A stretch of 64,000 bases of DNA, taken from assembly GCA_934163035.1 (NCBI GenBank), contig CAKPJX010000001.1:17294-81293 (forward strand), given 5' to 3'. Origin of the DNA: an uncultured Bacilli bacterium (GTDB taxonomy: Bacteria; Bacillota_I; Bacilli_A; RF39; UBA660). The notes under the pieces are model-generated. The model was given only the letters and a program-made list of their open reading frames with translations, searched no databases and was not told where the DNA came from. How positions within the stretch are numbered: the stretch's first letter is position 1; every line of letters begins with the position of its first letter. The position numbers and the translations under genes are program-made. Positions 9,082-62,819 of the stretch are shown here, piece after piece.

Positions 9082-10683
9082 TTAATTATCATTAGTACAA
9101 GAATAATATATCTTTATGCCCTTTTCAGTCTTTTCACGACTAATCTTACTACTGCACCAATTAGGACAAATAGCCTTATCTTCTACAGCACTATAGTAGC
9201 CACCACATTCCATATCATCTTCTTCTATCCTATCTTCAATATCAAAAATAATATACCCATCTGCAGTCTTTACTTGAGAATATAAGTAAACTTTAGAAAA
9301 ATTATTCATTAATTTTAAAGTCGTTTTTTCATTCGTAACAATTCTCATATCCCTATTATTGCCAATATTAAAATAATCTCTAATAGTATTATTCTTTAAA
9401 TCATTTAAAAAATCATCAAATAAAGCAATATAATTACCTGTAAAAGATGAATAAAATGTATAATCTTTCATTCCAAATAAAGATATTTTATCATACTTAA
9501 TATTTTCAAATTCATAAATATAATTATTTTTAATTACAATCATATCATCAGCCATATTATTATCTATTATAATTGAATAATCATGTGGATATGAATTAGT
9601 TATAATCATATTATCTTCATACTTAATTTCTTTAACATCTTCTTTTTTATTAATATCACTACTATTGGCTATTTTAAAGTTCTTTATACCAATAAAGCCA
9701 ACTCCTCCACCAATACCAATAAGTAATAAAGAAATAAGAGTCAAAACCGTCACAACCTTAATATTAATTTTCTTACTTATAACAAAATAAAGCAATAGTA
9801 ACATGACTAGAACTATTAATAATATACTTCCAATAAACGATAGTGATGTACCAACAAAGAAAATAGAATGAATAGATAAATATAGGCTTATCACTAATCC
9901 AACAACTGCAAAAATCAAAATAAAAGCTGCAAAAAATAACACAAAACAAATGCAAAACTTAATTACATATATCACTGCTTTTGAAAATATTGATAAAAAT
10001 GCAAATGGTTCATGATTAGGATCACGAAAAACTATTCGTTCTTCTTTTTTATTATCATTAAATGTAACTTTCTTATCATTTAAATCACTATTTTTATTTT
10101 TAATATTCTTACTATCACCAGTATCAACACATTTATCATAATAGTTTAAATACCTAATTTTAAATATATGTATAATAACTATTAAAGACAGTATCAAAGA
10201 TATGACCTCACAAATGCCTTTTAAAACAGAATATATAAAATTATAAGCACCGCTAGATAAGAATATAAATATATGACATATTATATAAGGAACAATCCTT
10301 GAAAAAGCAGAACTAATTATAAATAGACCTAATGCAATAAATAGCTGTTCAATTATACATTTAAGTATTGAAGTAAACTTCATTTGTGATAGCATATTTA
10401 TTGTCTTAGTAATAAAACCAAGTAGAGAATCTATCATAACATTAAAATTGTTCTTACTTTTCCTTTCATTTTGTTCAACATCTACGATATTCTCATCAAT
10501 CAAGCTATCCATACTACAACCAAATATATTGCATATTTGCACTATTTTATCTGTTTCCGGATATGTATTATTGCTCTCCCATTTAGATACAGATTGTCTT
10601 GAAACATTAAGCATAGACGCCAAATCTTCCTGAGAAAAGCCTCTTTCCTTTCTCAGTTTAATTAGTTTATCACCAAACTTCAT
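9082..10683 (-). CDS. membrane-spanning XRE-family HTH transcriptional regulator
   Basis: N-terminal LRKERGFSQEDLASMLNVSRQSVSKWES HTH, then multiple TM helices, then a ~200-aa C-terminal domain that ends Cys-rich. Confidence 0.8.
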   Translation of the reverse strand: MKFGDKLIKLRKERGFSQEDLASMLNVSRQSVSKWESNNTYPETDKIVQICNIFGCSMDSLIDENIVDVEQNERKSKNNFNVMIDSLLGFITKTINMLSQMKFTSILKCIIEQLFIALGLFIISSAFSRIVPYIICHIFIFLSSGAYNFIYSVLKGICEVISLILSLIVIIHIFKIRYLNYYDKCVDTGDSKNIKNKNSDLNDKKVTFNDNKKEERIVFRDPNHEPFAFLSIFSKAVIYVIKFCICFVLFFAAFILIFAVVGLVISLYLSIHSIFFVGTSLSFIGSILLIVLVMLLLLYFVISKKINIKVVTVLTLISLLLIGIGGGVGFIGIKNFKIANSSDINKKEDVKEIKYEDNMIITNSYPHDYSIIIDNNMADDMIVIKNNYIYEFENIKYDKISLFGMKDYTFYSSFTGNYIALFDDFLNDLKNNTIRDYFNIGNNRDMRIVTNEKTTLKLMNNFSKVYLYSQVKTADGYIIFDIEDRIEEDDMECGGYYSAVEDKAICPNWCSSKISREKTEKGIKIYYSCTNDN

Positions 10684-10864
10684 AATTTCACCTCACATCA
10701 ACAATAATATGATAATTACAGGTTGCATTCTACCAACTTTACTTGGAAATTTGTAAACTTTAAGTTGCATTAATAGTATAATAGCACAAATTTTAAAAAA
10801 TAAGTCAAAATAATAAAAATAGTCAGTGCTTAAACACCAACTATTAAAAAATTTATATATTCTT

Positions 10865-13210
10865 TTAATTAGCACAAGGCCAAGGTTTTAGAGTATCACA
10901 TTTATTCTTAGGAGGAATATAACTTGCCTTTTTAGTAGAACAATTTCCAGCTCTATCACAAATTTTAAGATCAGCTTTAATAACCTTAACAGTACTTTTT
11001 CTACTTAAGCAAATTGAAGCCCCACTCAAAAACTTTCCTGATAATGCACCATTATTAGCGTTGTCCCAATTATAGGTAGCATTACCATACCCATTATTTG
11101 AGCAAGTATTACCCGAGAACTGCTCTCCTTCTTCAATTTGATAGCAATATTTAAAATAAGCATTATTTGTTGATATACCAGACAAATTATCTGTAAACGT
11201 ATATCCAAATTTATAATAACCATGATCATTCGTTATGCCACAAGTAGTCATGTCTAATTTTTCAACAAACTTAGGTGGGTCTTTATCAACTTTTAAAGTA
11301 ATATCACATGTATTAACTCTTCCAGCATTATTTTTTATATAACCATACCATTTTTGCTTTTTAGTATTATCTGTTTGCTTGGCAGTTAAATTTTTTTTAT
11401 TATATGAAGGCGTTTTAGAAGTTGTCAATTTATAACCAGCTATACCACTTGTACTTGTACCATTAGTCATAGTTAATTTAACATTAGATGTATACCAATT
11501 ATTATCACCCTTAGTACCACTTGCACTAATGCTACATGTAGGTGAATTTTTATCAACTTTTACACTAATACTGCATTTGTTAACATTTCCAGCATTGTTT
11601 TTTACATAACCATACCATTTTTGCTTTTTAGTATTATCTGTTTGATTGCCAGTTAAAATAGTTCCATTATATGAAGGTTTATCTGAAGTTGTTAATATAG
11701 CGCCAGCTATACCACTTGTACTTGTACCATTAGTCATAGTTAATTTAACATTAGATGTATACCAATTATTATCACCCTTAGTACCACTTGCACTAATGCT
11801 ACATGTAGGTGAATTTTTATCAACCTTTATAGTTTTATAACATTCATTAACATTACCAGCTTTATCTTTTACATAACCATACCAATTTTGCTTTTTAGTA
11901 TTATCTGTTTGATTACCAGTTAAAATAGTTCCATTATATAAAGGTTTATCTGAAGTTGTTAATATAGCACCAGCTATACCACTACCATTTTTATCATCCT
12001 TACTCATATCTAGTCTAACATCAGATGTATACCAATCATTATCGCCCTTAGTACCACTTACAGTAATACCACATAATGGCTTTTCTTTATCTATTTTTAC
12101 ACTAAATTTCTTCTCTGCTATTTTATCATTTCCATATTTAGTTTTAAACGCTAATTTCTGTGTTTTAACTTTTTGATCTTCAGCAATAACATTAGTTTCC
12201 ACTTCTTCTTTAGAACTGCCATCAGAAAGTATTATATCTATTTTTTTGCCACAAGCATCAGTAGCTGTTGCAGTTACATAGACATTTTTATTGGTCCATG
12301 TATTGTTTTTATAATCATCATACTGTTTAATATTTTTAATATCAATATTACTATCATACTTTTTAGCAATCACTTTTATCTGTGGCTTGATATAATTAAC
12401 TGTAATAGTCTTACTTAATACTTCATACTGATAATCACTATCGGCATAACGATATTTTAATACTAATTTATAGTTTTTATTTTCTTCCTTCTGAACTATC
12501 TTATCAGCAAAAGATAAACTAATATTCGCCAAATTATTAAGATCATCTATTTTAGTATATTCTAATTTTTTTATTAAACCTTGATTATCACTACTAACAG
12601 AATCGATTAAGGAATACCCAAGTTCTACAATTCTTTTATTTTCATCGCTATCAACTGCTAATGTTAATTTAGCATCATTACTATTAGAAATACATGATGG
12701 AACATTCCTAATCTGTGCAATTTTATTGTTATCTATATTTTTACATACAGTTGGAACAGTAAATGTTGTTTGATACACTACTTCTTTCCCATTCTTCTTA
12801 CATATAATTGTTGGATAATACTTATAATTCCCTGATTCCTCCCTGACAACATATGCTGCTATATCATCACCAGTTCCAGTACATTCAACTCCATCTAAAT
12901 TATAACTCTTAAGTAAATTCCGACTCTTCAACTCTTCAAATTTTATACTAGCACATTGCGTATTTAAATCCCTTTTATTAAATTTGTCCTCACCATATGA
13001 ATCAATATATAATTTGGCAGAAGATATTATAGATTCCTCATATGACACATATTTTTTCTTTTCATTTTTTACTTGAATACCATTAACCACTGGCAAAGCA
13101 ATAGTAATAATAATTCCCAAAATAGCAATTGCTACAACCAATTCTACTAAAGTAAAACCAGTAGTTTTTTTATTTTCTTTATTATAAAATTTATCTTTCC
13201 AAGCCACCAC
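10865..13210 (-). CDS. modular type IV prepilin-like protein, 781 aa, with three tandem beta-sandwich-like repeats
   Basis: Class III signal peptide ...KKTTG/FTLVELVVAIAILGIIITIALP with G-1, F+1 and E+5. GTG start. A pilin-like head with Cys pairs is followed by 3 x 89-aa repeats and a Cys-rich tail. Confidence 0.8.
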   Translation of the reverse strand: MVAWKDKFYNKENKKTTGFTLVELVVAIAILGIIITIALPVVNGIQVKNEKKKYVSYEESIISSAKLYIDSYGEDKFNKRDLNTQCASIKFEELKSRNLLKSYNLDGVECTGTGDDIAAYVVREESGNYKYYPTIICKKNGKEVVYQTTFTVPTVCKNIDNNKIAQIRNVPSCISNSNDAKLTLAVDSDENKRIVELGYSLIDSVSSDNQGLIKKLEYTKIDDLNNLANISLSFADKIVQKEENKNYKLVLKYRYADSDYQYEVLSKTITVNYIKPQIKVIAKKYDSNIDIKNIKQYDDYKNNTWTNKNVYVTATATDACGKKIDIILSDGSSKEEVETNVIAEDQKVKTQKLAFKTKYGNDKIAEKKFSVKIDKEKPLCGITVSGTKGDNDWYTSDVRLDMSKDDKNGSGIAGAILTTSDKPLYNGTILTGNQTDNTKKQNWYGYVKDKAGNVNECYKTIKVDKNSPTCSISASGTKGDNNWYTSNVKLTMTNGTSTSGIAGAILTTSDKPSYNGTILTGNQTDNTKKQKWYGYVKNNAGNVNKCSISVKVDKNSPTCSISASGTKGDNNWYTSNVKLTMTNGTSTSGIAGYKLTTSKTPSYNKKNLTAKQTDNTKKQKWYGYIKNNAGRVNTCDITLKVDKDPPKFVEKLDMTTCGITNDHGYYKFGYTFTDNLSGISTNNAYFKYCYQIEEGEQFSGNTCSNNGYGNATYNWDNANNGALSGKFLSGASICLSRKSTVKVIKADLKICDRAGNCSTKKASYIPPKNKCDTLKPWPCAN
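11281..12085 (-). repeat. three tandem 267-bp coding repeats inside the pilin gene
   Basis: The string ccagctataccacttgtacttgtacc... recurs at 11436 and 11703, exactly 267 nt apart, with a run of ~120 identical nt. A third, more diverged copy lies at ~11818..12085. Confidence 0.9.
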
Positions 13211-13287
13211 AACATCACATCCTAATTACTATTATATATAACGAAATTATACAATAGTTTTATTCAATAATCAATAATAGTCCAGAT

Positions 13288-13333: not shown

Positions 13334-14968
13334 CTACTTAAAAATAGATCTTATTTTATAGATAAATGTAGAATTAGAAGCGCTATTTGAGCTATAACCC
13401 TTATAGTCTTTAGATAATTTAACAAGTCTCTTTAATTTATTAACATAACCACTAGCAGTATTACCATATGAAGAAAGTTTATTTATTCCTTCACTATTTA
13501 ACTTATCAAGTCCCTCTGATAATGTCGATGTACCATCAGCAGCACTATTTGCTCCATCAGCTAAATCCTTAGCCCCAACAGATAATTTAGAAATACCGTT
13601 CTTTAAATCATCAAGTCCAGTCTCTAACTCACTAGAACCATCCTTAGCCTCAGTCAAAGCCTCTTCAAGTTGCGCTAACATACTATTGATAGTTGCCGAA
13701 GTATCACTTATTTTAGCAGATAATGTTGTAATAGCATAACTATTGTTTTCTAATAACATTAAATAAGATACATCCTTTAATTGCTCAATTGTTAAAAGGA
13801 CACCCTTTTCTATTTCCTTCTTTCCAACACAAGCTGCTATTTTTAATTCATCCTCTTCTGTTGCTAAATTACACTCATCAATAATTTCTTTTGCTTTAGT
13901 GATCTTAGTCTCATCATTATTAAATTCATTTCTAATTTTAGTAATCATTTTTGTATTTGCCTGTTGCAATTGTCCTAACTTTTCCATTTGAGAAACTGTC
14001 TCTTCACTAGTTTGAGCTTCTTCTAAAGTCTTTTTAGCTTCTTCCAAACTAGCTATAATCTGCTCTAATCCAGAAGTTAATTTAACAGAACCTGCCTCTA
14101 ATTTAGAAACTCCAATCATAGCCTCATTTAATTTACTATTAATAGTATCAGCACCAGTTGCTAATTTCTTAGTACCAACAGTTAATTCCTTAGCTCCAAG
14201 AACAGCTTTATCCATATTAGATTGGAGTAGGTGCAATGAACTGTTTAAAGTATCCATCTTATTAAAAATAGATAAATCAGTATCAGACAATAACTTAGGA
14301 GTAGAAACTACATAAACATTGTTTAATTTAAAATTAGTAGTCTTATATGATAATACAACTTCATCTAAACCTTTAAGTTCATCTAAACCTAGACTTTCAT
14401 ATAAACCAGGAGAAGCTAAAGCTACAGCCATACTATTTTTACCAGTACTAACTACTTTACCATTACTAACTTCTATATTTGTATTTTCCTTATTACTTAA
14501 AGTTGTACCCATAGTAACTACAAATGGAGTATATAAACCATTACTATAAACATTATTTTTAAAACTTAGTTTAATTGTAACTTCTCCCTTTTTACCAGCC
14601 ATTTTCTTAGCTGACACTTCTTTTCCATTTAAATAGTATTTAACATCAACTGTAATAGGTAATTCTTTATCACTACTTCCCTGATAAAATATATCCTTTC
14701 CTGTACTATTCCAAGTAAGAACATTACCATCTCTATTAAATTTTTCAGTACCATTAATATTTAATAATTTTTTTAATTCTGTATCATCACTAACACTGCC
14801 TTTATCTAAATTGAAGATATGATTATTGACAACAGTCTTCTCAATCTTTCCATCCAACCCTAAATTAGTATAAACAACTTCATCTTTAGATAAAGCAAAA
14901 GTAGATACAGGTGTCATTAACATAGAAGACATTAATATTCCAGAAATAATTTTATTAATTTTTTTCAT
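13334..14968 (-). CDS. secreted coiled-coil protein with LxxG-type heptad repeats (YhgE/Pip-like partner of MMPL)
   Basis: Signal peptide MKKINKIISGILMSSMLMTPVSTFA. Repeated ...L..G...L..G... segments such as KELTVGTKKLATGADTINSKL and DLKNGISKLSVGAKDLADGAN. The stop abuts the MMPL gene. Confidence 0.6.
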   Translation of the reverse strand: MKKINKIISGILMSSMLMTPVSTFALSKDEVVYTNLGLDGKIEKTVVNNHIFNLDKGSVSDDTELKKLLNINGTEKFNRDGNVLTWNSTGKDIFYQGSSDKELPITVDVKYYLNGKEVSAKKMAGKKGEVTIKLSFKNNVYSNGLYTPFVVTMGTTLSNKENTNIEVSNGKVVSTGKNSMAVALASPGLYESLGLDELKGLDEVVLSYKTTNFKLNNVYVVSTPKLLSDTDLSIFNKMDTLNSSLHLLQSNMDKAVLGAKELTVGTKKLATGADTINSKLNEAMIGVSKLEAGSVKLTSGLEQIIASLEEAKKTLEEAQTSEETVSQMEKLGQLQQANTKMITKIRNEFNNDETKITKAKEIIDECNLATEEDELKIAACVGKKEIEKGVLLTIEQLKDVSYLMLLENNSYAITTLSAKISDTSATINSMLAQLEEALTEAKDGSSELETGLDDLKNGISKLSVGAKDLADGANSAADGTSTLSEGLDKLNSEGINKLSSYGNTASGYVNKLKRLVKLSKDYKGYSSNSASNSTFIYKIRSIFK

Positions 14969-14969
14969 T

Positions 14970-17033
14970 CTAAACTCCCTCTTTCTTAATATTTTTATGT
15001 TTTAAAATAATTTTATCAAACAACATTAATAATGTTGGTAATATAAATATTACAGAAACCATACTAATTATTGATCCACGTGCTAATAAAGTACATATAG
15101 AACCAATCATATCTATTTTAGTATAAAAACCTACACTAGCTGTTGCTGCAAAGAAACATAGTGCTGACGTAATTATTGATGGGATAGTAAATTTAAGTGT
15201 ATCCTCCATTGCCTTATTCTTATCACTACCACTCTGACGTTCTTCTATGTATTTGGTAGACATTAATATAGCATAATCAATTGTAGCTCCTAACTGTATT
15301 GTTCCAACAACAATTGATGCAATAAATGGTAAGGAAACTCCCATATAATATGCAAAAGACATATTAACAAAAATAGCAAATTCAATAACTATACTTAAGA
15401 TAATTGGTAAACATAGTGCCTTTAAAACCAAAACCATAATTATAAATATAACAACCAAAGAAGTATAATTAACCATATTGAAATCATGATCTGCAATAGT
15501 AATTAAGTCTTTCATTAAAGCACCCTCACCTGCTACTATTGCCTCTTTATCATATTTATGAACAATTTTATTCATTTCTGTAATTTGGTTATTTAATTTA
15601 TCTGATGCTATCTCATAAGTAGAATTAGTTAATATTAATTGATATTTTTCATTATTAAATAAATCTTGTAATTGATCCGGTAAAATAGTTTCAAGTCCAT
15701 TATTAACTATCTCTCCAGGTGCTAAAACCAAATCAATTCCTTTAACATCTTTTAATTCATCAGATAAACTTTCAATATCATCACTAGAAACATTTTTATC
15801 AAGTATTATTATTTCAGGAGATGTAATATTAAATTTTTCTGCTAATTCTTTATTAGCAATATTAAAAGCTAAATCTTTAGGTAGAGAATCATCAAGTTTA
15901 TAGTATACATCGAAATTTTTATTACCAATATAAGCCGGTATCATCAAAATTATAAATAATACTAAAATATATTTAGATTTTGAAATAATAAATTTTGGTA
16001 ATTTTTCAAATTTAGGTAATAATAATTTATGTTTAGTTTTATCAATAACTTTATCAAAAATAAGAAGTAATGTTGGGAATATTGTTACAACACATATAAG
16101 TCCAAATAAAACACCTTTTGCCATAACAATGCCAATATCCTTACCTAGTAATAAGTCCATTGTACATAAAGCTAAGAAACCTGCAAATGTTGTTAAAGAA
16201 GAACCTAAGATGGATTTAAACGTCTGAACAATAGCATCATCCATAGCTTCTTTTTTATCTTTAATAGACTTCTTAGAATCTTCATATTTATGATATAAGA
16301 ATATTGAAAAGTCAGTTGTAACACCAAGCTGTAATACTGCTGAAATTGATTTAGTAATATAACTTATATCTCCTAAGAAATAATTACTTCCCATATTATA
16401 AATTATAGCTACTCCAATATTTCCTAATAGAAGGAATGGAATAACATAAGAATCTGTAGTAGCCATAAGAATTATCAAACAGAATAAAACCGCAATTGAT
16501 ATATATGCAACTAATTCCTTATTTGATAAATCCATAGTGTCAATAACCATAGAAGTCATACTACTAATTCTAGAAGCATCATCAACTGTTTTTCTTAAAT
16601 CTCTAACAGCATTAATAGTAATATCTTCTGACGTAGATCCATCAAATGTAACAAAAATTAAAGTTTCATCATCGCTATATAACTTATCCTTTATCTGATC
16701 AGGTAACATATCATAAGGAATAGTAGTATCAATAATATCAGCCACACTATATATAGCGTTAACTCCTTTAATATCTTTTATTTTCTCTTCCAAGTTCAAT
16801 ATATCTAAAGATGACTTATTATCAACCATAACAAAAGCATATGATCCAAGTCCAAAATCATCAGTTAGTATTTTCTCACCCTTAATAGTTTCTATAGAAT
16901 CTGGTAAATACACTAAAATATCATAATTGATTCTAGTATTTACATATCCAAAAATAGAAATTATAAAAAGTATTACACTAATTACTAAAACCATAAATGG
17001 ATGATTAGTGATATTCTTCGCAAACTTTTTCAT
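14970..17033 (-). CDS. MMPL/RND-superfamily membrane transporter
   Basis: Two-fold architecture of TM bundle plus large loop. I trimmed the start to MKKFAKNITNHPF at 17033, which has an AAAGGAGAGAG RBS. Confidence 0.85.
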   Translation of the reverse strand: MKKFAKNITNHPFMVLVISVILFIISIFGYVNTRINYDILVYLPDSIETIKGEKILTDDFGLGSYAFVMVDNKSSLDILNLEEKIKDIKGVNAIYSVADIIDTTIPYDMLPDQIKDKLYSDDETLIFVTFDGSTSEDITINAVRDLRKTVDDASRISSMTSMVIDTMDLSNKELVAYISIAVLFCLIILMATTDSYVIPFLLLGNIGVAIIYNMGSNYFLGDISYITKSISAVLQLGVTTDFSIFLYHKYEDSKKSIKDKKEAMDDAIVQTFKSILGSSLTTFAGFLALCTMDLLLGKDIGIVMAKGVLFGLICVVTIFPTLLLIFDKVIDKTKHKLLLPKFEKLPKFIISKSKYILVLFIILMIPAYIGNKNFDVYYKLDDSLPKDLAFNIANKELAEKFNITSPEIIILDKNVSSDDIESLSDELKDVKGIDLVLAPGEIVNNGLETILPDQLQDLFNNEKYQLILTNSTYEIASDKLNNQITEMNKIVHKYDKEAIVAGEGALMKDLITIADHDFNMVNYTSLVVIFIIMVLVLKALCLPIILSIVIEFAIFVNMSFAYYMGVSLPFIASIVVGTIQLGATIDYAILMSTKYIEERQSGSDKNKAMEDTLKFTIPSIITSALCFFAATASVGFYTKIDMIGSICTLLARGSIISMVSVIFILPTLLMLFDKIILKHKNIKKEGV

Positions 17034-17109
17034 ACTTTCTCTCTCCTTTGCATAACTAATTCTATGCAAAATAAAAAAAAAGACCATACTCAGTTTCCTA
17101 AAATAGTAC

Positions 17110-17167
17110 GATAACCAACACTTATCCGAAAAATGTATAAGAAATATCCAACATAGTGTTGTTTATC
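17110..17167. promoter_or_regulatory. 13-nt inverted repeat in the divergent MMPL/TetR intergenic region (candidate operator)
   Basis: GATAACCAACACT (17110..17122) and AGTGTTGTTTATC (17155..17167) match 12/13 as an inverted repeat. A TATAAT-like box follows near 17190. Confidence 0.35.
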
Positions 17168-17231
17168 TTTACATCGGTCTGTTTTGGTATATAATATAAA
17201 TAGACATTTTTAAGAGAAAAAGGGTGAAAAA

Positions 17232-17798
17232 ATGAGTAACAAAAGTGATTTAAGAGTAATAAAAACTAAGAATAATTTATATGAAGGTCTATTAAAAATG
17301 ATGCGTGATAAGCCATTTGAAGAAATAAAGGTATCTGATATCTGTAAAGTTTCTCTAACTAATAGATCAACATTCTATGATCATTTCAGTGATAAATATG
17401 AATTATTATCATCACTTATTAAAGATCTAGAAAATGAACTTATCTTAAAATTAAAAAGCAATGTAAATATTGCTTCATCAAAAGACTTCTATATGGAAAT
17501 GATCAAGTTATTATTTGAGCATATTAGTGAAAATATATCAATCTACTCTTCAATAGCAAAGAATAATGATAACAGTGTTGCTAGCGACATGATGTATGAT
17601 ACTTTAATTAAGGATGTTAAAAGTCATATTGAAGATAATGAAGAATATAAAGGTTCAATTCCAGCTGAAATAATTACAATATTTTATGTTAGTGCCGTAA
17701 TAAAAGTATGTTTTAAATATATCTCAGATCCAAATAAATATAAAATGGAAGAAATCCTATCTTACTTAGAGCAATTAATTCCAGACAATATATATTAA
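17232..17798 (+). CDS. TetR/AcrR family transcriptional regulator
   Basis: N-terminal HTH FEEIKVSDICKVSLTNRSTFYDHFSDKYELL. It is divergent from the MMPL operon. Confidence 0.85.
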   Translation: MSNKSDLRVIKTKNNLYEGLLKMMRDKPFEEIKVSDICKVSLTNRSTFYDHFSDKYELLSSLIKDLENELILKLKSNVNIASSKDFYMEMIKLLFEHISENISIYSSIAKNNDNSVASDMMYDTLIKDVKSHIEDNEEYKGSIPAEIITIFYVSAVIKVCFKYISDPNKYKMEEILSYLEQLIPDNIY

Positions 17799-22145: not shown

Positions 22146-23672
22146 TTATTTACTAATAGATATCAAGTACTCTTCTAATATATCTAATAAATAATCAGCT
22201 GCATCCAACCCATCTGCCTTCATTCTAAGCATTGTAATTAAATCATCATCATTCATTTCAATAATTAGTTTACCATTTTCAGTTAATATTCCAGTAGCTG
22301 CCTTTCGAGCATTATGAGAAAAACCCTTTCTTGAAATAATGATCGCCACATTTCTTAAAACTGCATTATATAAATATTTTTCTGTTATATAAATAAGGTT
22401 TTGATCGACCTCATCTTTATAATTCTTAAATTCAAAAACTATAAATCTTGTATTATAATGTTCAATAAGAACTTCCCAAAATGTAGAAGTACCTTTTAAG
22501 CCACATACTAAATCCATTCTAAACATCTTATCATCAGTACTATTCTGTTCTAACATTCTAGTAAATTCAGCCTCAAATAAAAATTTAATAATATCTACAC
22601 ATAATTTTTCATACTTTTTATCATTATTATCATTATTACCACATTCCATATTTTCTAGTTTATATATAAAGGATTTAACAATATCCATTTCACTTTCATT
22701 ATTATTATTAAAAGACTTTCCAAACTTTAAAGAATCAATACTAATTGGTAACTTAGGAATTATATCATAAATATTATACTGAATAACACCAATTAACTCT
22801 CGCATTAGCTTTTCATTTTTTTGCGACAAGTATAATAAATTAGAAACATCAATAATTAATATTTGCTTTTCTAGATAAGTTTGTTTTTTGATCTCGTCTG
22901 GAACATAGCAAGCCATAACTAGTATAGCATCTACATTATTCTTAGACTTCCCATGCCATACTTTCATATAAGAATACAAACGATCTACTGAATAATTAAT
23001 AATTGTATTTTCTATATACTTACTCCTATAGTTTTTAGTCTCTACAATTATTTTTTTATCACCATTACAGGCAACAAAATCAACCCTCATCATCATTTGA
23101 TCATTACTTAGAGCCACGTCTCTCTCAATACTAGAAAAACCTAGTTCACTAAATAAATCTTCTATAAATTTTTCAAACCTATAATCCGTTTGATTAGGAT
23201 TAATATAACCTTCATTAATTATTTGTTCTGTAGTTATAGAATAATCAATACTTATATCATCTAACCAGTTACTACTATCTACTATTCTTTGACCTCTATT
23301 ACAAAAGCATATTAATCTAGCCTCTTTTGATGAACAATATATATTTTTATAATTTTTCTCTGATAAATTTTCTATATCATTCAATATAATATAATCAAAA
23401 TTATCTGCTATAGGATAGTTATAGTAACTACCTATTCCTACATTTTTATAGTCCTTCAAAAGTTCTTTAAAATGGTATTCTAACATCCTAGTTCTATTTA
23501 GTATTAAAATTCTACTCTCTAAATTTAATAGTTCAATTAATTTCTTAATTATAGTACTTTTGCCAGACCCTGTTGGTAATTCTATAACTACCTGCTTAGA
23601 ACCTTGTTTAATTTTTTTAATAATAATATCAATTACCTCTTGTTGATAACCTCGTATATTAACATTATTCAT
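22146..23672 (-). CDS. ResIII-like half-helicase fused to two Mrr-like PD-(D/E)xK nuclease modules
   Basis: - RGYQQEVI...ELPTGSGKS (helicase motif I).
- IILNDIENL stands in place of DExH.
- FEKFIEDLFSELGF...VDFVACNGDKKIIVETKNY (first nuclease module).
- YEKLCVDIIKFLF...MDLVCGL...FIVFEFKNY (second nuclease module). Confidence 0.6.
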   Translation of the reverse strand: MNNVNIRGYQQEVIDIIIKKIKQGSKQVVIELPTGSGKSTIIKKLIELLNLESRILILNRTRMLEYHFKELLKDYKNVGIGSYYNYPIADNFDYIILNDIENLSEKNYKNIYCSSKEARLICFCNRGQRIVDSSNWLDDISIDYSITTEQIINEGYINPNQTDYRFEKFIEDLFSELGFSSIERDVALSNDQMMMRVDFVACNGDKKIIVETKNYRSKYIENTIINYSVDRLYSYMKVWHGKSKNNVDAILVMACYVPDEIKKQTYLEKQILIIDVSNLLYLSQKNEKLMRELIGVIQYNIYDIIPKLPISIDSLKFGKSFNNNNESEMDIVKSFIYKLENMECGNNDNNDKKYEKLCVDIIKFLFEAEFTRMLEQNSTDDKMFRMDLVCGLKGTSTFWEVLIEHYNTRFIVFEFKNYKDEVDQNLIYITEKYLYNAVLRNVAIIISRKGFSHNARKAATGILTENGKLIIEMNDDDLITMLRMKADGLDAADYLLDILEEYLISISK

Positions 23673-35784: not shown

Positions 35785-37245
35785 ATGAAAAAAGAAAAAT
35801 TTAAATATTTATATAGTTTTAAATATAACAACAAAGACTATATTTATTTAGTAGCTAGAAATTATCCATTCTATTTTTTAGAATATGATTCTAAAAAAAA
35901 TAATTTTGATTATCCTGATATTAATACATTTACAGAACTATATAGAAAATTTTATTCTAATAATGGAATAAATTTCAGTGTTAAAGATGAGTTAAAAAGA
36001 ATTAGAGAAATATTGTACAATATAAATTTTGATATTACTCCTCTAGTAAGAACTACAAGTGGCCTATTATCTGTTATTATAGCCCTATCATTTACCGGCT
36101 GCAAACAAACTGATGGTATGAATGATGTTAACAGCACAGAGCCTACATCGATTGTCGAGATGCAAGATAAAAGCAATGAAATTTACAATTATTTTAAAAA
36201 TTATGGTATGGATGTTATAGACAAAGAGTATGATGGCAGTGATTACATTTTTGTTACAAATTTTATAAACAGCGATAATAAGCATCAGATCACACTTCAA
36301 GATCATGAAGAATTTAGAAAATTTAAAAATATAGACTTTATTCCAGCTTGGAATGATGTAACTGAAGCGTTTAAAAGCAACGAAAATATCGATGACGATA
36401 AAAAAGATATCATATTAAAGAGCATTGATAATATGCGAAATAGTAAGGAACTAAACGGTATAGATCTAAGTGTCTTATATGCTAATGCTAAAAGAATGAA
36501 AATAAAATATATTTCAGCTGAAGAAATAACAAACGCAGCGAATAAAGATTCTGTTTATGCTTACTTTGATTCCGCAGATGGAACTGTATATCTACCAAGT
36601 GATAGAAATTTTGAAGAATTTGAATTTATCCATGAAGTTTTAGGTCACGGAACATTAGCGTATCGAGAAAAAACAGAAGATTCACTAGTAGTATTTGACT
36701 GCACAAACTACCTAATGCTCCCAGAAGAAGATAGATATACTGGTTATTCTGTAGGTACTATGGTTGGTGAAGGCGGTGCTAACATGATCGCCCATTTAGC
36801 AACCAATAATTATAATACCAGTAGTTTTTATGAGTTATTTGAAGAAGAATTACGAGTTATTGCACAATTATGTAATGTTTCTATAGGTGAACTATTAAAT
36901 CATAAAGGAATTAGTCTATATGATTTAATGTATGAAAATGGAATTGATACTCCTGTAGAATATATTTTTAAAATGGATGGAATCTGTAAAGGACAACTCT
37001 ACTGTGAATTTTCAGATCTAATGGAAAGATTATTTGTTGATGCAACAGAAGAAAAAATTGTTAATTCAAATGAACAACAACAAAATGAAATTATTAAAGA
37101 TACGGTAGAAATAATAAGAAACAGTTATTTTAAGGATAAGGGGGAATTATCTTTTGGCTATACCGGAGGATCAATTGATTATAACTTTGAAGAAAGTGCC
37201 AATAAATATGAAGAAAATATAAACGGATTAAGAAGTAAAAAATAA
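35785..37245 (+). CDS. putative membrane/lipid-anchored HExxH metalloprotease-like protein
   Basis: FIHEVLGHG (HExxH). An internal hydrophobic segment ends LSFTGC about 100 aa from the N-terminus. Confidence 0.45.
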   Translation: MKKEKFKYLYSFKYNNKDYIYLVARNYPFYFLEYDSKKNNFDYPDINTFTELYRKFYSNNGINFSVKDELKRIREILYNINFDITPLVRTTSGLLSVIIALSFTGCKQTDGMNDVNSTEPTSIVEMQDKSNEIYNYFKNYGMDVIDKEYDGSDYIFVTNFINSDNKHQITLQDHEEFRKFKNIDFIPAWNDVTEAFKSNENIDDDKKDIILKSIDNMRNSKELNGIDLSVLYANAKRMKIKYISAEEITNAANKDSVYAYFDSADGTVYLPSDRNFEEFEFIHEVLGHGTLAYREKTEDSLVVFDCTNYLMLPEEDRYTGYSVGTMVGEGGANMIAHLATNNYNTSSFYELFEEELRVIAQLCNVSIGELLNHKGISLYDLMYENGIDTPVEYIFKMDGICKGQLYCEFSDLMERLFVDATEEKIVNSNEQQQNEIIKDTVEIIRNSYFKDKGELSFGYTGGSIDYNFEESANKYEENINGLRSKK

Positions 37246-38196: not shown

Positions 38197-38273
38197 TGGT
38201 GTCCCCGGGCAGATTTGAACTGCCGACCTATCGCTTAGGAGGCGATTGCTCTATCCAGCTGAGCTACGAGAAC
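38197..38273 (-). tRNA. tRNA-Arg (anticodon CCU)
   Basis: The 77-nt cloverleaf folds by hand:
- acceptor GTTCTCG/CGGGGAC
- D stem GCTC/GAGC
- anticodon stem ATCGC/GCGAT with loop CTCCTAA
- T arm GGCAG-TTCAAAT-CTGCC
- encoded CCA. Confidence 0.93.
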
Positions 38274-46903: not shown

Positions 46904-47797
46904 ATGAAAAAAAATTATCAAAATACACTTTTAATTACAATTTTATCTATATTATTAATATTATATTTATTAAATCCTACTTTAATAATAAAGAGTATTC
47001 TAGATTATACTGATCTATTTATAAAAAAACTATTCCCTGTTAGTTTTATTTTCTATATAATATCATCACTCTTAATAGATTATGGCCTAGTAGAATTTCT
47101 AACTAATACCCTAAATTTAAATGGAGCTACATCATATGTTACTATAATGAGCCTAATAAGTGGTTTCCCAAGTGGAGCTAAATATACAAAAGATCTATTA
47201 GATAAAGATCTCTTAAATGAAAAAGAAGCCAATTATTTAATAAGATATACCCATTTCCCAAACCCTATGTTTATATTAGGATCAGTATCAACAATATTTA
47301 TCTCAAAAAAAATCCCCATAATTATACTTATATCACTTGTACTAAGTAATTTTATAATTGCTCTATTCTATAAAGAAAAAACAAGTAAAGTTAAAATACC
47401 ACAAAAAAAAGAAGTAAAAGACTTTTCTACTTCTCTAACAAAAGCTATAACCTCATCAATAAAAATATTAATAGTAGTATATGGAATATCAATATTCTTC
47501 TTTCTAATATCAGTAGTTATTAATAATTATATAAAACTAAGTCCTCTAAACTTTGTTTTAATAAATGGCATCTTTGATCTAACAAAAGGCGTCTTTTCAA
47601 CTCCATTGATACAAAACGATATAATAAAAGCCACTCTAATTATTAGCTTTATATCCCTAGGAAGCTTATCGATTCACATGCAAGTAAAAAGTATTATAAA
47701 CGACTCCAATATAAAATATAAAAACTTTTTAATATCTCGACTAGAACAAATGATACTAGCCAATATTATATTCATTATATTAAATTGTCTCTTATGA
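46904..47797 (+). CDS. ylbJ: sporulation integral membrane protein YlbJ-like
   Basis: Polytopic nucleoside-recognition-type membrane protein with SLISGFPSGAKY, located next to ylbL as in Bacillus. Confidence 0.7.
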   Translation: MKKNYQNTLLITILSILLILYLLNPTLIIKSILDYTDLFIKKLFPVSFIFYIISSLLIDYGLVEFLTNTLNLNGATSYVTIMSLISGFPSGAKYTKDLLDKDLLNEKEANYLIRYTHFPNPMFILGSVSTIFISKKIPIIILISLVLSNFIIALFYKEKTSKVKIPQKKEVKDFSTSLTKAITSSIKILIVVYGISIFFFLISVVINNYIKLSPLNFVLINGIFDLTKGVFSTPLIQNDIIKATLIISFISLGSLSIHMQVKSIINDSNIKYKNFLISRLEQMILANIIFIILNCLL

Positions 47798-48957: not shown

Positions 48958-50934
48958 ATGGTAGAGACAGAAGTAAAGGAGATTGCTATAAAGAATAAAG
49001 ATTCTAATACAGTATCTTTTGATTATGAGAAAACTCCTATTACCCAAATCGCTGATTATATTATTATAAATGCCTCAAATCGAAATAGTTCCGATATCCA
49101 TTTCGACCCTAGAGAAGATGGAATGATGGTAAGATTTAGAATTGATGGTGAATTACAAGACTATACTTTCGTTCCAAAAACTTATGAAAGAAATTTAGTA
49201 ACGCGTCTTAAATTAATATCTAATATGAATATAACTGAATCACGTCTACCACAAGATGGAGCAATCAAAGGTACATTTGGTGGAAAAGAACTAGATATGC
49301 GTGTATCTTGCTTACCATTAAATGAAGGTGAAAAAGTCGTTATTCGTATTCTTGACTATACTAGAAGTTTACAAGGAATTGATAGTCTCGGTTTTAATAA
49401 AGCTAATTTAGCTAAACTAAAGAGAATGATGGGTGTACCTAATGGTATTATCCTAGTTACAGGAGCTACAGGTTCTGGTAAATCAACCACTACCTACTCT
49501 ATATTACAAGGTCTAAATAAACCAGAAATTAATATCATAACTGTTGAAGACCCAATCGAAATGAACATTGAAGGAATGAATCAGGTTCAAGTTAATGCTG
49601 AAATTGGTATGACCTTTGCTGCTGCTCTACGTTCTATTTTGCGTCAAGATCCAAATGTTATCCTAATAGGAGAAATTCGTGACTCTGAAACAGCTCAAAT
49701 AGCAGTACGTGCTTCAATCACAGGGCACCTTGTTCTATCAACAATCCATACCAATAACTCGCTCGCAACAATCGAACGTTTACTAGATATGGATGTAGAA
49801 AGATACTTGCTTTCAACTGCCCTAACGGGTATCATTTCACAAAGACTAGCTAAAAAACTTTGTACTAAATGTCGTATACAAAGACCAACTACTAAATATG
49901 AAAAAAAGGTCTTTAAAAAATATATGCATACTGATGTAGACATTATATGGGATGCCAATCCAAAAGGATGTGACAGTTGTCGTCGAGGTTATAAAGGCAG
50001 AATTGCTATTCAAGAAGTACTAGAAATTGATGATGAAATTAGAAATGCCCTAAATAATGAAAAACTTAAAAAAGAAGATTTAAGTAACATGGTATATACA
50101 GATAAAACTATAACTATGCTTCAAGATGCCCTTGGTAAGGCTCTAGCTGGCTTAACTAGTTTTGAAGAAGTATACAGAGTAATTGAAATAGAAAATGATG
50201 ATGATGATTCAGGTGGTGAATTAACAAAAGCAATTGAAGAAACAACTACACCAGTTACTGAACCTGAAAAAGTAGTTGAGAAAAAGGAAGTAAATATAAC
50301 ACCAACCACTGTTACAAAAGCCGATCAAACAATAAAGATTCCAACAAATAATGTAGCACCACAAAAACAAGTACCAGTAAATACTACTCCTGGACAAATA
50401 ACAACTGCAACCGTTAAAACAGTAACAACTACAGCTCCAAATGTCAAAGAAATACCTAAAAATATAAATCCTGTTGATGTTGCAAATGTTCAAACTGTAA
50501 ACCCCGCACCTATCAATAAGACAATCATAAATCAAAACAAGATAGCAAATGCTACACCTGTACCTAAACAAATTCAACCTAATCAAGTGATTAAACAATA
50601 TCCAGTACCACAACAGCAAATAGCTAAGCCAATAAATCAACAAGTACCTACACAGCAAATAGCTAAGCCAATAAATCAACAAGTACCAGTACAACAAACA
50701 GCTAAACCAATAAACCAGCAAGTACCTGTACAACAACAAATAACTAAACCGGTAACACAGCAGGCTGCAATAAATCAAACAGTAAAAACACCTGGACAAG
50801 TTATAAATAATAGACAAATACCAAATCAACAACAAGTAATAAGAAATGCACCTGTCCAACAACCACAACAAATACCTCAGAATCAACAACAAGTTCGCAC
50901 AGGTCAAGTAGTTATTCCAACTATTAAACAATAA
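48958..50934 (+). CDS. GspE/PilB/ComGA-family secretion ATPase with a long low-complexity C-terminal tail
   Basis: - Walker A GATGSGKSTT.
- Walker B region ILIGEIRD.
- His box GHLVLSTIHTN.
- Tetracysteine CTKC...CDSC.
- From ~aa 412 on, a Q/P/T/N/V-rich tail. Confidence 0.88.
   Translation: MVETEVKEIAIKNKDSNTVSFDYEKTPITQIADYIIINASNRNSSDIHFDPREDGMMVRFRIDGELQDYTFVPKTYERNLVTRLKLISNMNITESRLPQDGAIKGTFGGKELDMRVSCLPLNEGEKVVIRILDYTRSLQGIDSLGFNKANLAKLKRMMGVPNGIILVTGATGSGKSTTTYSILQGLNKPEINIITVEDPIEMNIEGMNQVQVNAEIGMTFAAALRSILRQDPNVILIGEIRDSETAQIAVRASITGHLVLSTIHTNNSLATIERLLDMDVERYLLSTALTGIISQRLAKKLCTKCRIQRPTTKYEKKVFKKYMHTDVDIIWDANPKGCDSCRRGYKGRIAIQEVLEIDDEIRNALNNEKLKKEDLSNMVYTDKTITMLQDALGKALAGLTSFEEVYRVIEIENDDDDSGGELTKAIEETTTPVTEPEKVVEKKEVNITPTTVTKADQTIKIPTNNVAPQKQVPVNTTPGQITTATVKTVTTTAPNVKEIPKNINPVDVANVQTVNPAPINKTIINQNKIANATPVPKQIQPNQVIKQYPVPQQQIAKPINQQVPTQQIAKPINQQVPVQQTAKPINQQVPVQQQITKPVTQQAAINQTVKTPGQVINNRQIPNQQQVIRNAPVQQPQQIPQNQQQVRTGQVVIPTIKQ
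50611..50766 (+). repeat. about four tandem 39-nt (13-aa) repeats in the ATPase tail
   Basis: CAGCAAATAGCTAAGCCAATAAATCAACAAGTACC recurs at 50614 and 50653. The peptides are QQIAKPINQQVPT, QQIAKPINQQVPV, QQTAKPINQQVPV and QQQITKPVTQQAA. Confidence 0.85.
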
Positions 50935-61731: not shown

Positions 61732-61746
61732 TAAAATCCCTCCATA

Positions 61747-62052: not shown

Positions 62053-62116
62053 AAAGCCATCATCAGTAGCTATATCAGAATAAGAACTATAATAACTATT
62101 AAAACTTGAATATATA

Positions 62117-62788: not shown

Positions 62789-62819
62789 AAAAATCCCCCT
62801 GTCAAAATTACTTATTATA

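Follow-up and report, generated by a model that had tools for sequence, protein, structure and literature searches.

The common picture of type IV pili is one of thin fibres composed of subunits of about 15 kDa, to which function is added by a handful of small minor pilins. For modular pilins, with PilB of Streptococcus sanguinis as an example, models place the protein at the pilus tip, where it serves as an adhesin (PMC8179133). The catalogue of such proteins exceeds 1,200 entries in 264 architectures, and further modules that escape detection were anticipated (Raynaud et al., 2021, PMC8179133). A separate census was dedicated to fibrillar adhesins; its list of anchors did not include the pilin motif (PMC8286594).

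Here we analysed a gene for a 781-aa protein within a 64-kb stretch of DNA (referred to as the window) from an uncultured Bacilli bacterium. The protein is predicted to join a pilin head to a long rod of Ig-like domains, and the corresponding features are compiled in Table 1.

Table 1. Features of the prepilin gene, its product and candidate partners in the window
Feature	Position	Strand	Basis
Complete CDS, predicted 781-aa modular prepilin	10865..13210	(-)	stop codon at 10865-10867; ORF list
Promoter-like site TTGATT-17 nt-TATAAT	13246..13274	(-)	consensus scan, 10/12 matches; consensus match only
Putative AGGA ribosome-binding site, 9 nt 5' of GTG	13220..13223	(-)	read from sequence
Leader peptide aa 1-18 (MVAWKDKFYNKENKKTTG), last residue Gly-1	13157..13210	(-)	N_methyl and TIGR02532 matches
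Alpha1 helix aa 19-75: hydrophobic alpha1N with E5, G14, P22, then amphipathic alpha1C	12986..13156	(-)	AF2 DSSP helix 21-75
Predicted globular pilin head aa 76-159, beta-sheet, conserved Cys86/Cys110/Cys137/Cys156	12734..12985	(-)	AF2 strands 85-147
D1 (aa 160-273) and D2 (aa 274-377), conserved domains predicted as beta-sandwiches	12080..12733	(-)	AF2 all-beta
Three tandem Ig-like repeats of ~89 aa: R1 378-467, R2 468-556, R3 557-646	11273..12079	(-)	TRF, HMM
Allelic cassette, no DNA similarity to syntenic locus L092	11297..12060	(-)	blastn L001 vs L092
C-terminal module aa 647-781, Cys/Gly/Asn-rich insertion, Cys-rich tail (...KCDTLKPWPCAN), 8 Cys	10868..11272	(-)	AF2 beta-sandwich
Intrinsic-terminator-like hairpin and T-run, directly 3' of stop	10818..10845	(-)	terminator scan, 12-bp stem
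Pseudopilin (RG/ITTIE), candidate partner	47792-48298	(-)	motif scan, translation
Pseudopilin (KG/FALVE), candidate partner	48298-48861	(-)	motif scan, translation
GspE/PilB-type assembly ATPase, 658 aa, P/Q-rich tail, candidate partner	48958..50934	(+)	T2SSE 3.5e-118

Class III signal and predicted pilin head

The N-terminus of the protein reads ...KKTTG/FTLVELVVAIAILGIIITIALP. A short basic leader runs to Gly-1 and is followed by Phe+1, Glu+5 and about 21 hydrophobic residues with the helix-breaking G14 and P22, and the protein thus carries the canonical class III signal residues (G-1, F+1, E+5, G14, P22). Two curated motif models match above their cut-offs, namely Pfam N_methyl (PF07963; IPR012902; 30.8 bits, cut-off 21.2) and TIGR02532 (22.9 bits, cut-off 16.3). 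The class III signal and hydrophobic pilin helix proposed by the initial annotation were thereby corroborated. When all six frames of the 64 kb were scanned with a relaxed motif, G-[FMILVYA]-[STAN]-[LMFIV]-[ILVMP]-E, it occurred three times: in the 781-aa ORF, in the pseudopilin at 48.8 kb and once in a frame that is non-coding. This motif does not cover the other pseudopilin (RG/ITTIE). Only one hydrophobic segment (aa 15-48) is present in the 781-aa protein. Neither LPXTG nor LPxT[GAS] occurs anywhere in it, and the protein does not carry the C-terminal LPXTG with hydrophobic tail of a sortase anchor.

AlphaFold (AF2) predicts a 55-residue alpha1 helix joined to a beta-sheet head (pLDDT 58-86), which corresponds to the lollipop fold of pilins, in which an alpha1 helix of about 53 residues packs on an antiparallel beta-sheet. 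The protein contains 20 cysteines, four of which (C86, C110, C137 and C156) lie in the head and are conserved across the family. In an alignment of 23 diverse members of this head family (A3), G-1, F1, T2, E5 and P22 are invariant, and the head is 40-47% identical to plain pilins of 139-156 aa. A head profile matched solved pilins at 1e-9 to 1e-4, best geopilin (1e-9) and S. sanguinis PilE1 (4e-9), with all of these matches restricted to alpha1. The pilin-like head with cysteines that had been suggested earlier is therefore borne out by both the predicted fold and the homology to plain pilins of about 140 aa, and the N-terminus is a conserved class III signal with pilin head rather than a plain signal anchor.

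As no prepilin peptidase is encoded in the window, it could be argued that an ordinary secreted or membrane-anchored repeat protein merely mimics a class III signal. We regard this as extremely improbable and largely refuted by the curated motif models, by the invariance of G-1, F1, E5 and P22 in 23 diverse family members, by the predicted pilin fold and by the homology of the head to 140-aa pilins. Judged by sequence and structural model, the 781-aa protein is a genuine modular type IV prepilin.

A predicted rod of six Ig-like domains

Downstream of the head, aa 160-765 are predicted by AF2 to be all-beta and to form six Ig-like beta-sandwich domains, comprising two conserved domains, three repeats and a Cys-rich cap. 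Structure prediction of head and repeats, which had been proposed as a check, thus returned a pilin fold followed by Ig-like domains, and the arrangement of head, repeats and terminal module is as initially annotated. However, the region termed a spacer (aa 160-377) is predicted to consist of two folded beta-sandwich domains, D1 and D2 (pLDDT 56-91 per 10-residue block). Both are conserved in the relatives P0003-P0011 and P0068 and have no match in Pfam or NCBIfam. Around the transition from the head to D1 (aa 148-165), pLDDT drops to 63-66, which is compatible with a hinge.

The repeats were recovered by Tandem Repeats Finder with a period of 267 nt (3.0 copies, 87% matches, positions 11282-12074) and by HMM domain calls at aa 378-468, 468-557 and 557-646. 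Delimited as aa 380-469, 470-558 and 559-647, they are 61-80% identical at the protein and 79-88% at the DNA level and are predicted with a pLDDT of about 90 or above. Each contains exactly two cysteines (380/457, 470/546 and 559/635), sited in the first and last strand, in agreement with the three 89-aa units with two Cys each that had been described before. Among 30 diverse repeats, P1, C3, G74 and C79 are invariant. The C-terminal module (predicted strands 647-764, pLDDT 54-92) is common to P0001-P0004 and the 1,465-aa P0068. When folded alone, it reached a pLDDT of 60, displayed a generic beta-sandwich likeness and gave no Foldseek match below E 0.04.

Outside the N-terminus, no credible match to Pfam or NCBIfam was obtained. 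None of the modules matches a ligand-binding family already described, nor was there a match to any known adhesin family that might merely share a hydrophobic N-terminus. When the complete model was searched with Foldseek in PDB and BFVD, only generic Ig/FN3 arrays were returned, the top matches being strings of Ig-like domains from the GhpA grappling hook (7e-12), protocadherins and an RTX adhesin stalk. The repeat profile gave only chance antibody matches (E > 0.1) among PDB sequences. A Pfam hit to 'Herp-Cyclin' on the repeats (24.2 bits for the whole protein at a cut-off of 25, and nominally above it with 26.4 bits for the isolated repeat region) was rejected as spurious: the 44 residues aligned belong to the profile of a helical viral cyclin, whereas the model of this region is all-beta with a pLDDT above 90. 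The suggestion that the repeats are OmpL47-like holds weakly. They share the motif pattern GxxGxNxWY...SG...D.AGN with the OmpL47-type beta-barrel domain (NF047446), which was matched below threshold by 12 of 30 repeats from relatives (best E 2.8e-5; P0014 16.5 bits; all below the cut-off of 40 bits). In the window protein itself, neither R2 singly nor the three-repeat region gave a match.

The head defines a large family of mostly giant pilins

With 1,265 clusters at 50% identity, the pilin family to which the head belongs is large and uncharacterised; it includes plain 140-aa pilins and members of up to 1,465 aa. Among the best 150 head matches listed, with those retrieved earlier left out, 111 of 144 are longer than 500 aa (median 667 aa), and giant forms outnumber short pilins among the cluster representatives. 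As lengths above 500 aa prevail among the best-matching members, the protein stands out within its family neither by rarity nor by size and, given the number of clusters, is not a one-off. The initial annotation had considered such pilins rare and this one unusually large; the first assessment is also at odds with the census figures given above. Similarly, its description as an orphan does not set the gene apart, as the genes of relatives are likewise placed among housekeeping genes. The named relatives stem from gut MAGs labelled 'Bacilli bacterium'. The same repeats also occur on proteins with ordinary signal or transmembrane anchors.

A scan of GTDB genomes with the single protein yielded no relative. 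The scan with the head alignment responded to the generic motif GFTL[IV]EL, and 79 of the 80 loci obtained were unrelated pilins matching in alpha1N only; L008, from a 'Bacilli bacterium' MAG, was the sole true head relative.

Genomes harbour two to three paralogues. This number and the predominance of giant forms are unusual for classical minor pilins and count against a minor-pilin reading. If the giant protein were instead a major or abundant subunit, the pilus would be coated with radial 600-aa rods like a bottle-brush, each attached via a flexible head-D1 linker. The dominance of giant forms and the hinge-compatible segment between head and D1 are in line with such an arrangement, and a location in the pilus body has been considered possible given a flexible linker (Raynaud et al., PMC8179133). 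However, the head family also has short pilins, which occupy the place expected of a major pilin, the modular pilins known so far are minor or tip subunits (PMC8179133), and with a 600-aa rod on each subunit such a fibre would be implausibly crowded. We therefore consider shaft decoration quite improbable and favour a modular minor pilin.

The gene and its distance from the pilus machinery

The reading frame is intact and starts with GTG. A promoter-like site, a putative ribosome-binding site and a terminator-like hairpin frame the gene (Table 1), with the reservation that the terminator scan found one site where 0.7 were expected. The exact 781-aa protein is present on three metagenome contigs. 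Compared with the syntenic allele, the gene has a dN/dS of 0.2-0.3, indicating that it is functional. A membrane-bound XRE regulator had been taken for its only same-strand neighbour, but according to the ORF list a 544-aa gene and an MMPL gene upstream are located on the minus strand as well. We also dismissed XRE as a dedicated regulator of the pilin. Its 37%-identical orthologue at L008 adjoins Zip, 7 kb from the L008 pilin, and terminator- and promoter-like signals lie between the XRE and pilin genes. The sole Rfam match was a tRNA.

The pilin gene is monocistronic and unlinked to the pilus genes within the window, and the distance of about 35 kb to the ATPase and the two pseudopilins that had been stated before agrees with the coordinates. 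The ATPase scored 1e-139 against the GspE and 1e-132 against the PilB model, both below the equivalog cut-offs, and the pseudopilins showed weak N-terminal matches to ComGD and ComGE. As PilC, PilD (Peptidase_A24), PilM-O and a short major pilin were all absent from the 64-kb window, we infer processing and assembly in this host. In a relative, PilC (T2SSF) and PilD (Peptidase_A24) are encoded about 9 kb away from the gene of a short pilin whose head belongs to this family, and a distant giant pilin that shares the repeats sits behind a Tad-like ATPase cluster.

The isolated position of the gene, which is repeated in relatives, raises the question whether a filament is involved at all. The prepilin N-terminus might serve as export signal and membrane anchor only, the rod spanning the thick wall and exposing the cap, while T4P-like proteins would at most form a short piston or pseudopilus. 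An Ig-like domain usually spans about 4 nm, and at this assumed value per domain the rod would measure roughly 20-30 nm, similar to the thickness of the wall. Such filament-independent display would also fit the several giant paralogues per genome, the excess of members above 500 aa among the head matches listed and the occurrence of the repeats on ordinary signal- or TM-anchored proteins. In addition, about half of the fibrillar-adhesin candidates have no known anchor (PMC8286594), and archaeal sugar-binding proteins offer a precedent for class III signals on proteins outside filaments (PMC3047682). On the other hand, E5, G14, P22 and the head fold are as strictly conserved as in plain 140-aa pilins, which a mere anchor would not need, and one distant member is located in the Tad-like operon. 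Display without a filament thus appears unlikely to us, and we retain assembly into a pilus as the preferred reading. If it nevertheless proved true, the family would reveal a new route of Gram-positive surface anchoring.

The repeat tract varies between strains

The locus L092, from a strain of 96-97% identity, is syntenic and otherwise 96-98% identical, but the blastn alignments stop at nt 1150 of the gene and resume at nt 1915. The exchange affects precisely the three repeats, in whose place stands a cassette of another repeat type that is unrelated in its DNA. Protein identity amounts to 94% for the head and 87% for the C-terminal module, but to 36% across the repeats. The architecture of P0068 likewise combines a conserved anchor and cap with a middle that varies. 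Two further alleles differ in copy number: P0001 carries two repeats (R1 and R3) and P0002 a single R1/R3 hybrid, both being near-identical otherwise; these alleles stem from short-read metagenome assemblies and may be artefacts of repeat collapse. Thus, the type of repeat varies between strains, and the copy number (one, two or three) apparently does so in assemblies. The tract is a recombination hot spot, as shown for repeat type and, for copy number, as seen in assemblies only.

Replacement confined exactly to the repeats could mean that the variable tract itself is under selection and that the module is not adhesive, acting for example as spacer or shield against phage or host antibodies, as DNA or polymer receptor or as cell-cell spacer. 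The dS of 0.30 in the C-terminal part of the gene, compared with 0.05-0.09 in neighbouring genes, and the several paralogues per genome would be in line with this, and for Periscope proteins a regulation of surface interactions, beyond adhesion as such, has been proposed (PMC9704523). However, conservation of the cap at the distal end points to a specific terminal function, as is the case in fibrillar adhesins. We judge a non-adhesive module to be very unlikely and maintain a role in adhesion.

A model for a pilus-borne adhesin

The protein is probably a modular minor type IV pilin that presents a stalk of variable length and a cap, and thus a pilus-borne adhesin. As no module matches a known ligand-binding family, it is the architecture that suggests the term adhesin. 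A prepilin peptidase from another part of the genome would cleave off the lysine-rich 18-aa leader behind Gly18, and the mature protein would begin at Phe1 and carry Glu5. The hydrophobic alpha1N, including G14 and P22, may then dock together with the small alpha/beta head into a type IV filament, for which a PilB-type ATPase would assemble a short pilin with a head of this family. As some 620 residues hang off the head, the protein is most likely a subunit of low abundance, positioned at the tip or sparsely in the shaft. It would display a single-chain rod of six predicted Ig-like beta-sandwiches, in which the invariant Cys pair in the first and last strand may clamp each repeat against pulling forces. 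The conserved distal Cys-rich cap is the best candidate for the ligand-binding end. Changes in copy number and repeat type could tune reach or antigenicity while anchor and cap remain constant.

A wider reading takes the prepilin head, in this lineage of uncultured gut Bacilli, as a general chassis for fibrillar, periscope-like surface proteins. Dozens of paralogous giant pilins would be exported and displayed across the thick wall by a dispersed minimal T4P machinery, whether or not a long pilus is formed, with stalk cassettes of whole Ig domains shuffled in a pilE/pilS-like manner among paralogues and strains. We consider this rather doubtful; if true, it would add a further anchoring route for Gram-positive adhesins beside sortase, S-layer and choline-binding.

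Beyond the favoured pilus-borne adhesin, the family comprises a conserved monoderm pilin head that routinely bears 500-1,300 aa of Ig-like domains in at least 1,265 clusters at 50% identity. Both the modular-pilin and the fibrillar-adhesin census miss it, as no database signature detects these domains. The syntenic alleles constitute a natural experiment, in which the same anchor and cap are combined with stalks that differ in type and, in assemblies, in copy number. Two ideas thereby become testable: adjustment of reach by pilus-borne adhesins and their antigenic variation through exchange of cassettes. As the hosts appear to be uncultured gut Firmicutes, the giant pilins are candidate colonisation factors.

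Comparison with known systems

In structure, the best match of the whole model was the grappling hook protein GhpA of Aureispira (PDB 9flw, 9flp), likewise a string of Ig-like domains. The match is generic (13% identity, TM 0.33-0.45), and GhpA has no pilin module and uses another secretion and anchoring system. CofB and TcpB, the tip minor pilins of ETEC and Vibrio cholerae, resemble the window protein in that a pilin module is combined with beta-rich domains (beta-repeat and beta-sandwich) devoid of sequence signatures (as summarised in PMC8179133). In contrast to the protein described here, they are trimeric diderm T4b pilins of about 500 aa whose genes lie in the pilus operon (PMC8179133), and they share no sequence similarity with it beyond alpha1N.

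With its pilin module (aa 19-159) followed by six Ig-like domains, for which Foldseek returned generic Ig arrays, the protein corresponds to a modular pilin as defined by Raynaud et al. (2021). The operational criterion of that census was an InterPro or Pfam signature on the extra module, whereas here no credible match exists outside the N-terminus. The closest counterparts are S. sanguinis PilB (vWA) and PilC (lectin), which also combine a monoderm host, a class III signal and a C-terminally grafted module (PMC8179133; PMC9934059), and the expected role is the same, a binding module presented by a filament. However, the graft of about 620 aa consists of six Ig-like domains and not of one globular effector, no module carries a database signature, and the gene lies outside a pil operon. 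Cassette replacement and, in assemblies, copy-number differences are further distinctions, and tip location and adhesion are putative for the window protein.

The predicted rod finds its counterpart in the periscope and fibrillar adhesins SasG, Rib and Sgo0707, which also form a single-chain tandem Ig-like rod encoded by similar DNA repeats (PMC9704523; PMC8286594). In these proteins, repeat number differs between close strains and a distal module is conserved. The distal cap is conserved here as well, and the differing copy numbers seen in short-read assemblies would, if genuine, match the former. Periscope repeats are by definition longer than 50 aa and 'highly identical', whereas the three window repeats (89-90 aa) are only 61-80% identical. 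The anchor is an N-terminal prepilin module instead of a C-terminal LPXTG, and the orientation of the rod is therefore reversed, so that its C-terminus would be the functional end.

Signal peptide and pilin head

The N-terminus of the prepilin (MVAWKDKFYNKENKKTTG/FTLVELVVAIAILGIIITIALP) exceeded the curated cut-offs of both Pfam N_methyl (30.8 vs. 21.2 bits) and TIGR02532 (22.9 vs. 16.3 bits), in agreement with the class III signal peptide reported in the initial annotation. Across the 64 kb, read in all six frames, the relaxed class III motif occurred at just three sites, one of them in a non-coding frame. The 781-aa protein contains a single hydrophobic segment (aa 15-48), and no LPXTG motif was found in it. 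The AlphaFold2 model, based on 39 homologues (mean pLDDT 80), consists of an unstructured leader, one unbroken helix (residues 21-75), a small beta-sheet (residues 85-147) and, from there on, beta structure only. A profile of the head matched solved type IV pilins across the alpha1 helix, among them geopilin (1e-9), S. sanguinis PilE1 (4e-9), MshA, PilA of several species and GspG. The core claim of a modular type IV prepilin is supported: the protein has a class III signal, a pilin fold in the model and sequence homology with short pilins, and we are highly confident that this is a genuine type IV pilin-class protein.

A large family sharing the head

A search with residues 1-380 against 1.84 billion cluster representatives returned 1,265 matches at E<=1e-3, of which 534 reached E<=1e-10. 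The matches include plain pilins of 139-156 aa with 40-47% identity to aa 14-150, which share G-1, F1, T2, E5, P22, Cys86, Cys110 and Cys137 with the prepilin. Lengths were counted among the best 150 of the 1,265 matches, 144 of which were left after removal of those retrieved earlier. Long forms dominate the head family among these best matches (111 of 144 above 500 aa, 10 above 1,000 aa, median 667 aa), and the size that had been regarded as exceptional is common. The homologue P0068 (1,465 aa) has a head, proximal domains D1/D2 and a C-terminal cap (...KPWPCAN) as in the window protein, with eight domains matching the repeat profile and other domain types in between. All family members originate from metagenomes or MAGs, those with a name being gut MAGs labelled 'Bacilli bacterium'; the prepilin is thus part of an extensive family of uncultured gut Firmicutes that has so far gone unannotated. 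One such MAG (locus L008) encodes a 233-aa pilin with the same head, whose C-terminal tail is made solely of (A/T)(T/R)PSAS(S)-type Ser/Pro/Ala repeats and looks like a glycosylation-type linker, another kind of C-terminal elaboration.

Stalk, repeats and cap

Tandem Repeats Finder identified a 267-nt unit in 3.0 copies (87% matches), corresponding to aa 380-469, 470-558 and 559-647, with 61-80% protein identity and two of the protein's 20 Cys in each unit, as had been described. The modular layout was confirmed for the repeats and the Cys/Gly/Asn-rich C-terminal module; the presumed spacer, by comparison, was modelled as two beta domains at about aa 160-273 (D1) and 274-377 (D2). The three repeats reached pLDDT values of about 90 or above, and the C-terminal sandwich (aa 647-765) contains a poorly predicted Cys/Gly/Asn-rich insertion and is followed by a Cys-rich tail. 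The model thus predicts a rod of six Ig-like domains behind the pilin head. With the whole model, Foldseek returned only strings of Ig-like domains, including the Aureispira grappling-hook protein GhpA (7e-12), contactins, protocadherins, an RTX-adhesin stalk and viral Ig/FN3 arrays. Folded alone, the cap (aa 647-781) was modelled with low confidence (pLDDT 60), and none of its structural neighbours reached significance.

The post-pilin modules had no credible Pfam or NCBIfam match at threshold. A Herp-Cyclin match on the isolated repeat region (26.4 vs. 25 bits) was rejected as spurious because a helical profile is mapped onto a confidently all-beta region. In a profile of 30 diverse repeats P1, C3, G74 and C79 were invariant, and its comparison with PDB sequences found nothing. 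The suggested check against OmpL47-like domains gave sub-threshold matches to the OmpL47-type barrel model NF047446 in 12 of the 30 diverse repeats (best E 2.8e-5) and no match for the window repeat scanned, so that sequence comparison points to a distant relationship at best. The window-type repeat is also found on proteins that carry ordinary signal peptides or transmembrane anchors, and is therefore a general surface-protein domain.

Allelic variation

A locus from another sample, L092, is syntenic with the window gene for gene (ResIII, GNAT, TetR, MMPL, 544-aa gene, pilin, XRE, Bax1-I, Zip, QueH, Mur ligase), with DNA identities of 96.2% upstream and 97.6% downstream. The blastn alignment ends at nt 1150 of the prepilin gene and restarts at nt 1915, and the gap comprises precisely the three repeats. 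The L092 allele (P0003, 773 aa) keeps 94% identity over aa 1-379 and 87% across the cap, against just 36% along the repeat tract. There, a different unit of ~87 aa with four Cys (GGSxTWINK...CxDxGGSGC...DKAGN) occurs in three copies; it is remotely related to the window repeat (E about 1e-6 to the repeat HMM). Two near-identical alleles carry the first and third repeats (P0001, 692 aa) or one hybrid of these two (P0002, 603 aa). Such counts match in-frame recombination between repeats, and short-read assembly collapse would equally give them. The anchor and the cap are constant; the middle is replaceable, and in the assemblies its number of repeats differs as well.

The conserved parts of the prepilin are under purifying selection (dN/dS 0.22-0.31). 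Their dS (0.10 in the head and proximal domains, 0.30 in the cap) lies above that of neighbouring genes (0.05-0.09), suggesting recombinational import extending into the 3' part of the gene. L092 also retains the gene for a 508-aa protein that joins a ResIII helicase N-terminus to an Mrr_cat/NERD nuclease domain, a candidate for type IV restriction or defence.

The prepilin gene and its neighbours

The open reading frame lies where the initial annotation had placed it. As it has its own AGGA site, promoter-like site and hairpin with T-run, the gene looks monocistronic.

Features of the window and of homologous loci
Feature	Sequence	Position	Strand	Remark
Prepilin gene	Window	10865-13210	-	781 aa, start codon GTG
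AGGA site	Window	9 nt upstream of prepilin start	-
TTGATT-17-TATAAT	Window	13274-13246	-	Promoter-like, prepilin gene
12-bp hairpin, T-run	Window	10845-10818		Directly past prepilin stop
267-nt repeats	Window	11282-12074		Tandem Repeats Finder
Gap in blastn alignment with L092	Window	11297-12060
Repeat-internal sigma-70-like sites	Window	11399-11428, 11666-11695, 11933-11962	-	One per repeat, coding strand
XRE gene	Window	9082-10683	-	533 aa
544-aa, MMPL and TetR genes	Window	13334-17798
ResIII-Mrr_cat/NERD fusion	Window	22146-23672	-	508 aa
486-aa ORF	Window	35785-37245	+	Between germination (GerA/GerAC) genes and tRNA
tRNA	Window	38200-38273		Only Rfam match in window
GspE/PilB-type ATPase	Window	48958-50934	+	T2SSE 3.5e-118
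Three sigma-70-family ORFs	Window	59842-64000	-	629 aa, 223 aa, one past window end (called as 454 aa)
Three giant pilins	L005	5383-7746, 10001-12337, 15995-18301		787, 778, 768 aa
Short pilin	L005	203-586		127 aa
Tad-like region with P0039	L004	3862-13773		P0039, 828 aa
Pilin with Ser/Pro/Ala tail	L008	265-966		233 aa
XRE orthologue	L008	7659-9236		37% identical

Contrary to what had been stated, the XRE gene is not the sole same-strand neighbour, since the 544-aa and MMPL genes upstream share the minus strand. The secreted 544-aa protein with xxxLxxG heptad repeats (TIGR03057, 5 stretches), the MMPL-family transporter and the divergent TetR gene form a YhgE/Pip-like module immediately upstream on the same strand, with promoter-like signals between. 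The XRE protein has its XRE/HTH_3 domain at the N-terminus, several transmembrane segments, and a C-terminal domain that contains Cys and looks extracellular. Its orthologue in L008 adjoins Zip, as the window gene is also near a Zip transporter, and is not beside the pilin of that locus. The proposed link was therefore dropped and a dedicated pilin regulator rejected; the protein has the appearance of a conserved regulator tethered to the membrane.

The repeat-internal sites read TTGACA-18-TATAAT (12/12 matches) in one repeat and TTAACA-18-TATAAT (11/12) in the other two. They are probably due to chance in 27% GC DNA, multiplied by the repeat, though transcription could still start there. Elsewhere in the window, the 486-aa ORF had no Pfam or NCBIfam match, and the length of the 629-aa sigma-70-family protein is unusual among sigma factors.

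Dispersed filament genes and a proposed function

The window ATPase gene stands alone, divergent from two adjoining pseudopilin genes (KG/FALVE and RG/ITTIE), with no pilC or pilD beside it; type IV filament genes are therefore present in this genome but dispersed. No Peptidase_A24 or T2SSF gene was found in the precomputed annotations of window positions 865-63931. The ATPase lacks the usual N-terminal domain (aligned from profile position 93 of GspE or 158 of PilB) and has a P/Q/V/T-rich C-terminal tail of ~250 aa with AKPINQQVPxQQ-type repeats. Proteins in its 90%-identity cluster are 581 to 658 aa long, and the tail length is therefore polymorphic.

The giant pilin genes of relatives are likewise dispersed: P0010 and another giant pilin are flanked by rpmF and addAB, P0014 is located among lipid and RNA metabolism genes, and in L005 ('Bacilli' MAG, GCA_046965015.1, contig JBKUZI010000011.1) three giant paralogues and a short pilin occur within 20 kb amid housekeeping genes. 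The N-termini of these paralogues are nearly identical; L002 has two adjacent giant pilins of 1,095 and 827 aa. At L088/L089, a 156-aa pilin with the same head is located 9 kb from adjacent PilC (T2SSF) and PilD (Peptidase_A24) genes. The distant giant pilin P0039 shares the repeats and has a Gly/Ala-rich hydrophobic C-terminus; upstream are a ParA/CpaE-like ATPase gene, a divergent TadA-like T2SSE ATPase and a protein that matches T2SSF faintly, so that the region looks like a Tad-like operon including a giant pilin.

The main rival reading, display without a filament, the prepilin N-terminus being merely export signal and anchor and the rod spanning the wall, would fit the dispersed genes, the abundance of paralogues and the fact that giant forms predominate, but E5, G14, P22 and the head fold are strictly conserved, and we consider it unlikely. 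We lean towards a pilus-borne adhesin, the full model being somewhat probable. A PilD encoded elsewhere in the genome would cleave after Gly18, and the head would dock via alpha1N into a filament of a short pilin of the same family, extended by the PilB-like ATPase. Because of its bulky extension, the subunit would be found only at the tip or sparsely elsewhere, as was modelled for S. sanguinis PilB (PMC8179133). The distal cap may bind a ligand and the repeats set the reach, with a rod of roughly 20-30 nm assuming about 4 nm per domain. The invariant Cys pair of each repeat, which DSSP output of the predicted model places in the first and the last strand, could act as a clamp against pulling force.

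Comparison with known systems

By analogy, the prepilin may work like a modular pilin. The assumption that such proteins are rare is not supported: the count of Raynaud et al. (2021) exceeds 1,200, spread over 264 architectures and with 860 aa as the greatest length noted, and they predicted many more undetected ones with modules lacking signatures (PMC8179133). The head family is a case of modular pilins missed for want of module signatures. By threshold the prepilin is no member of the OmpL47-domain family, and it has no sequence kinship with CofB and TcpB beyond alpha1N. Tandem Ig-like repeats, strain-to-strain differences in repeat number (here apparent, in assemblies) and a conserved distal module are shared with periscope proteins and fibrillar adhesins (PMC9704523; PMC8286594); those are anchored by a C-terminal LPXTG motif, whereas here the anchor is an N-terminal pilin module, which was not among the anchors searched in the fibrillar-adhesin census (PMC8286594). 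The function is a proposal, and the alleles form a natural series open to testing. That modules can be grafted onto pilins is established; new here is a pilin head with a cassette-replaceable, apparently length-variable stalk and a conserved cap.
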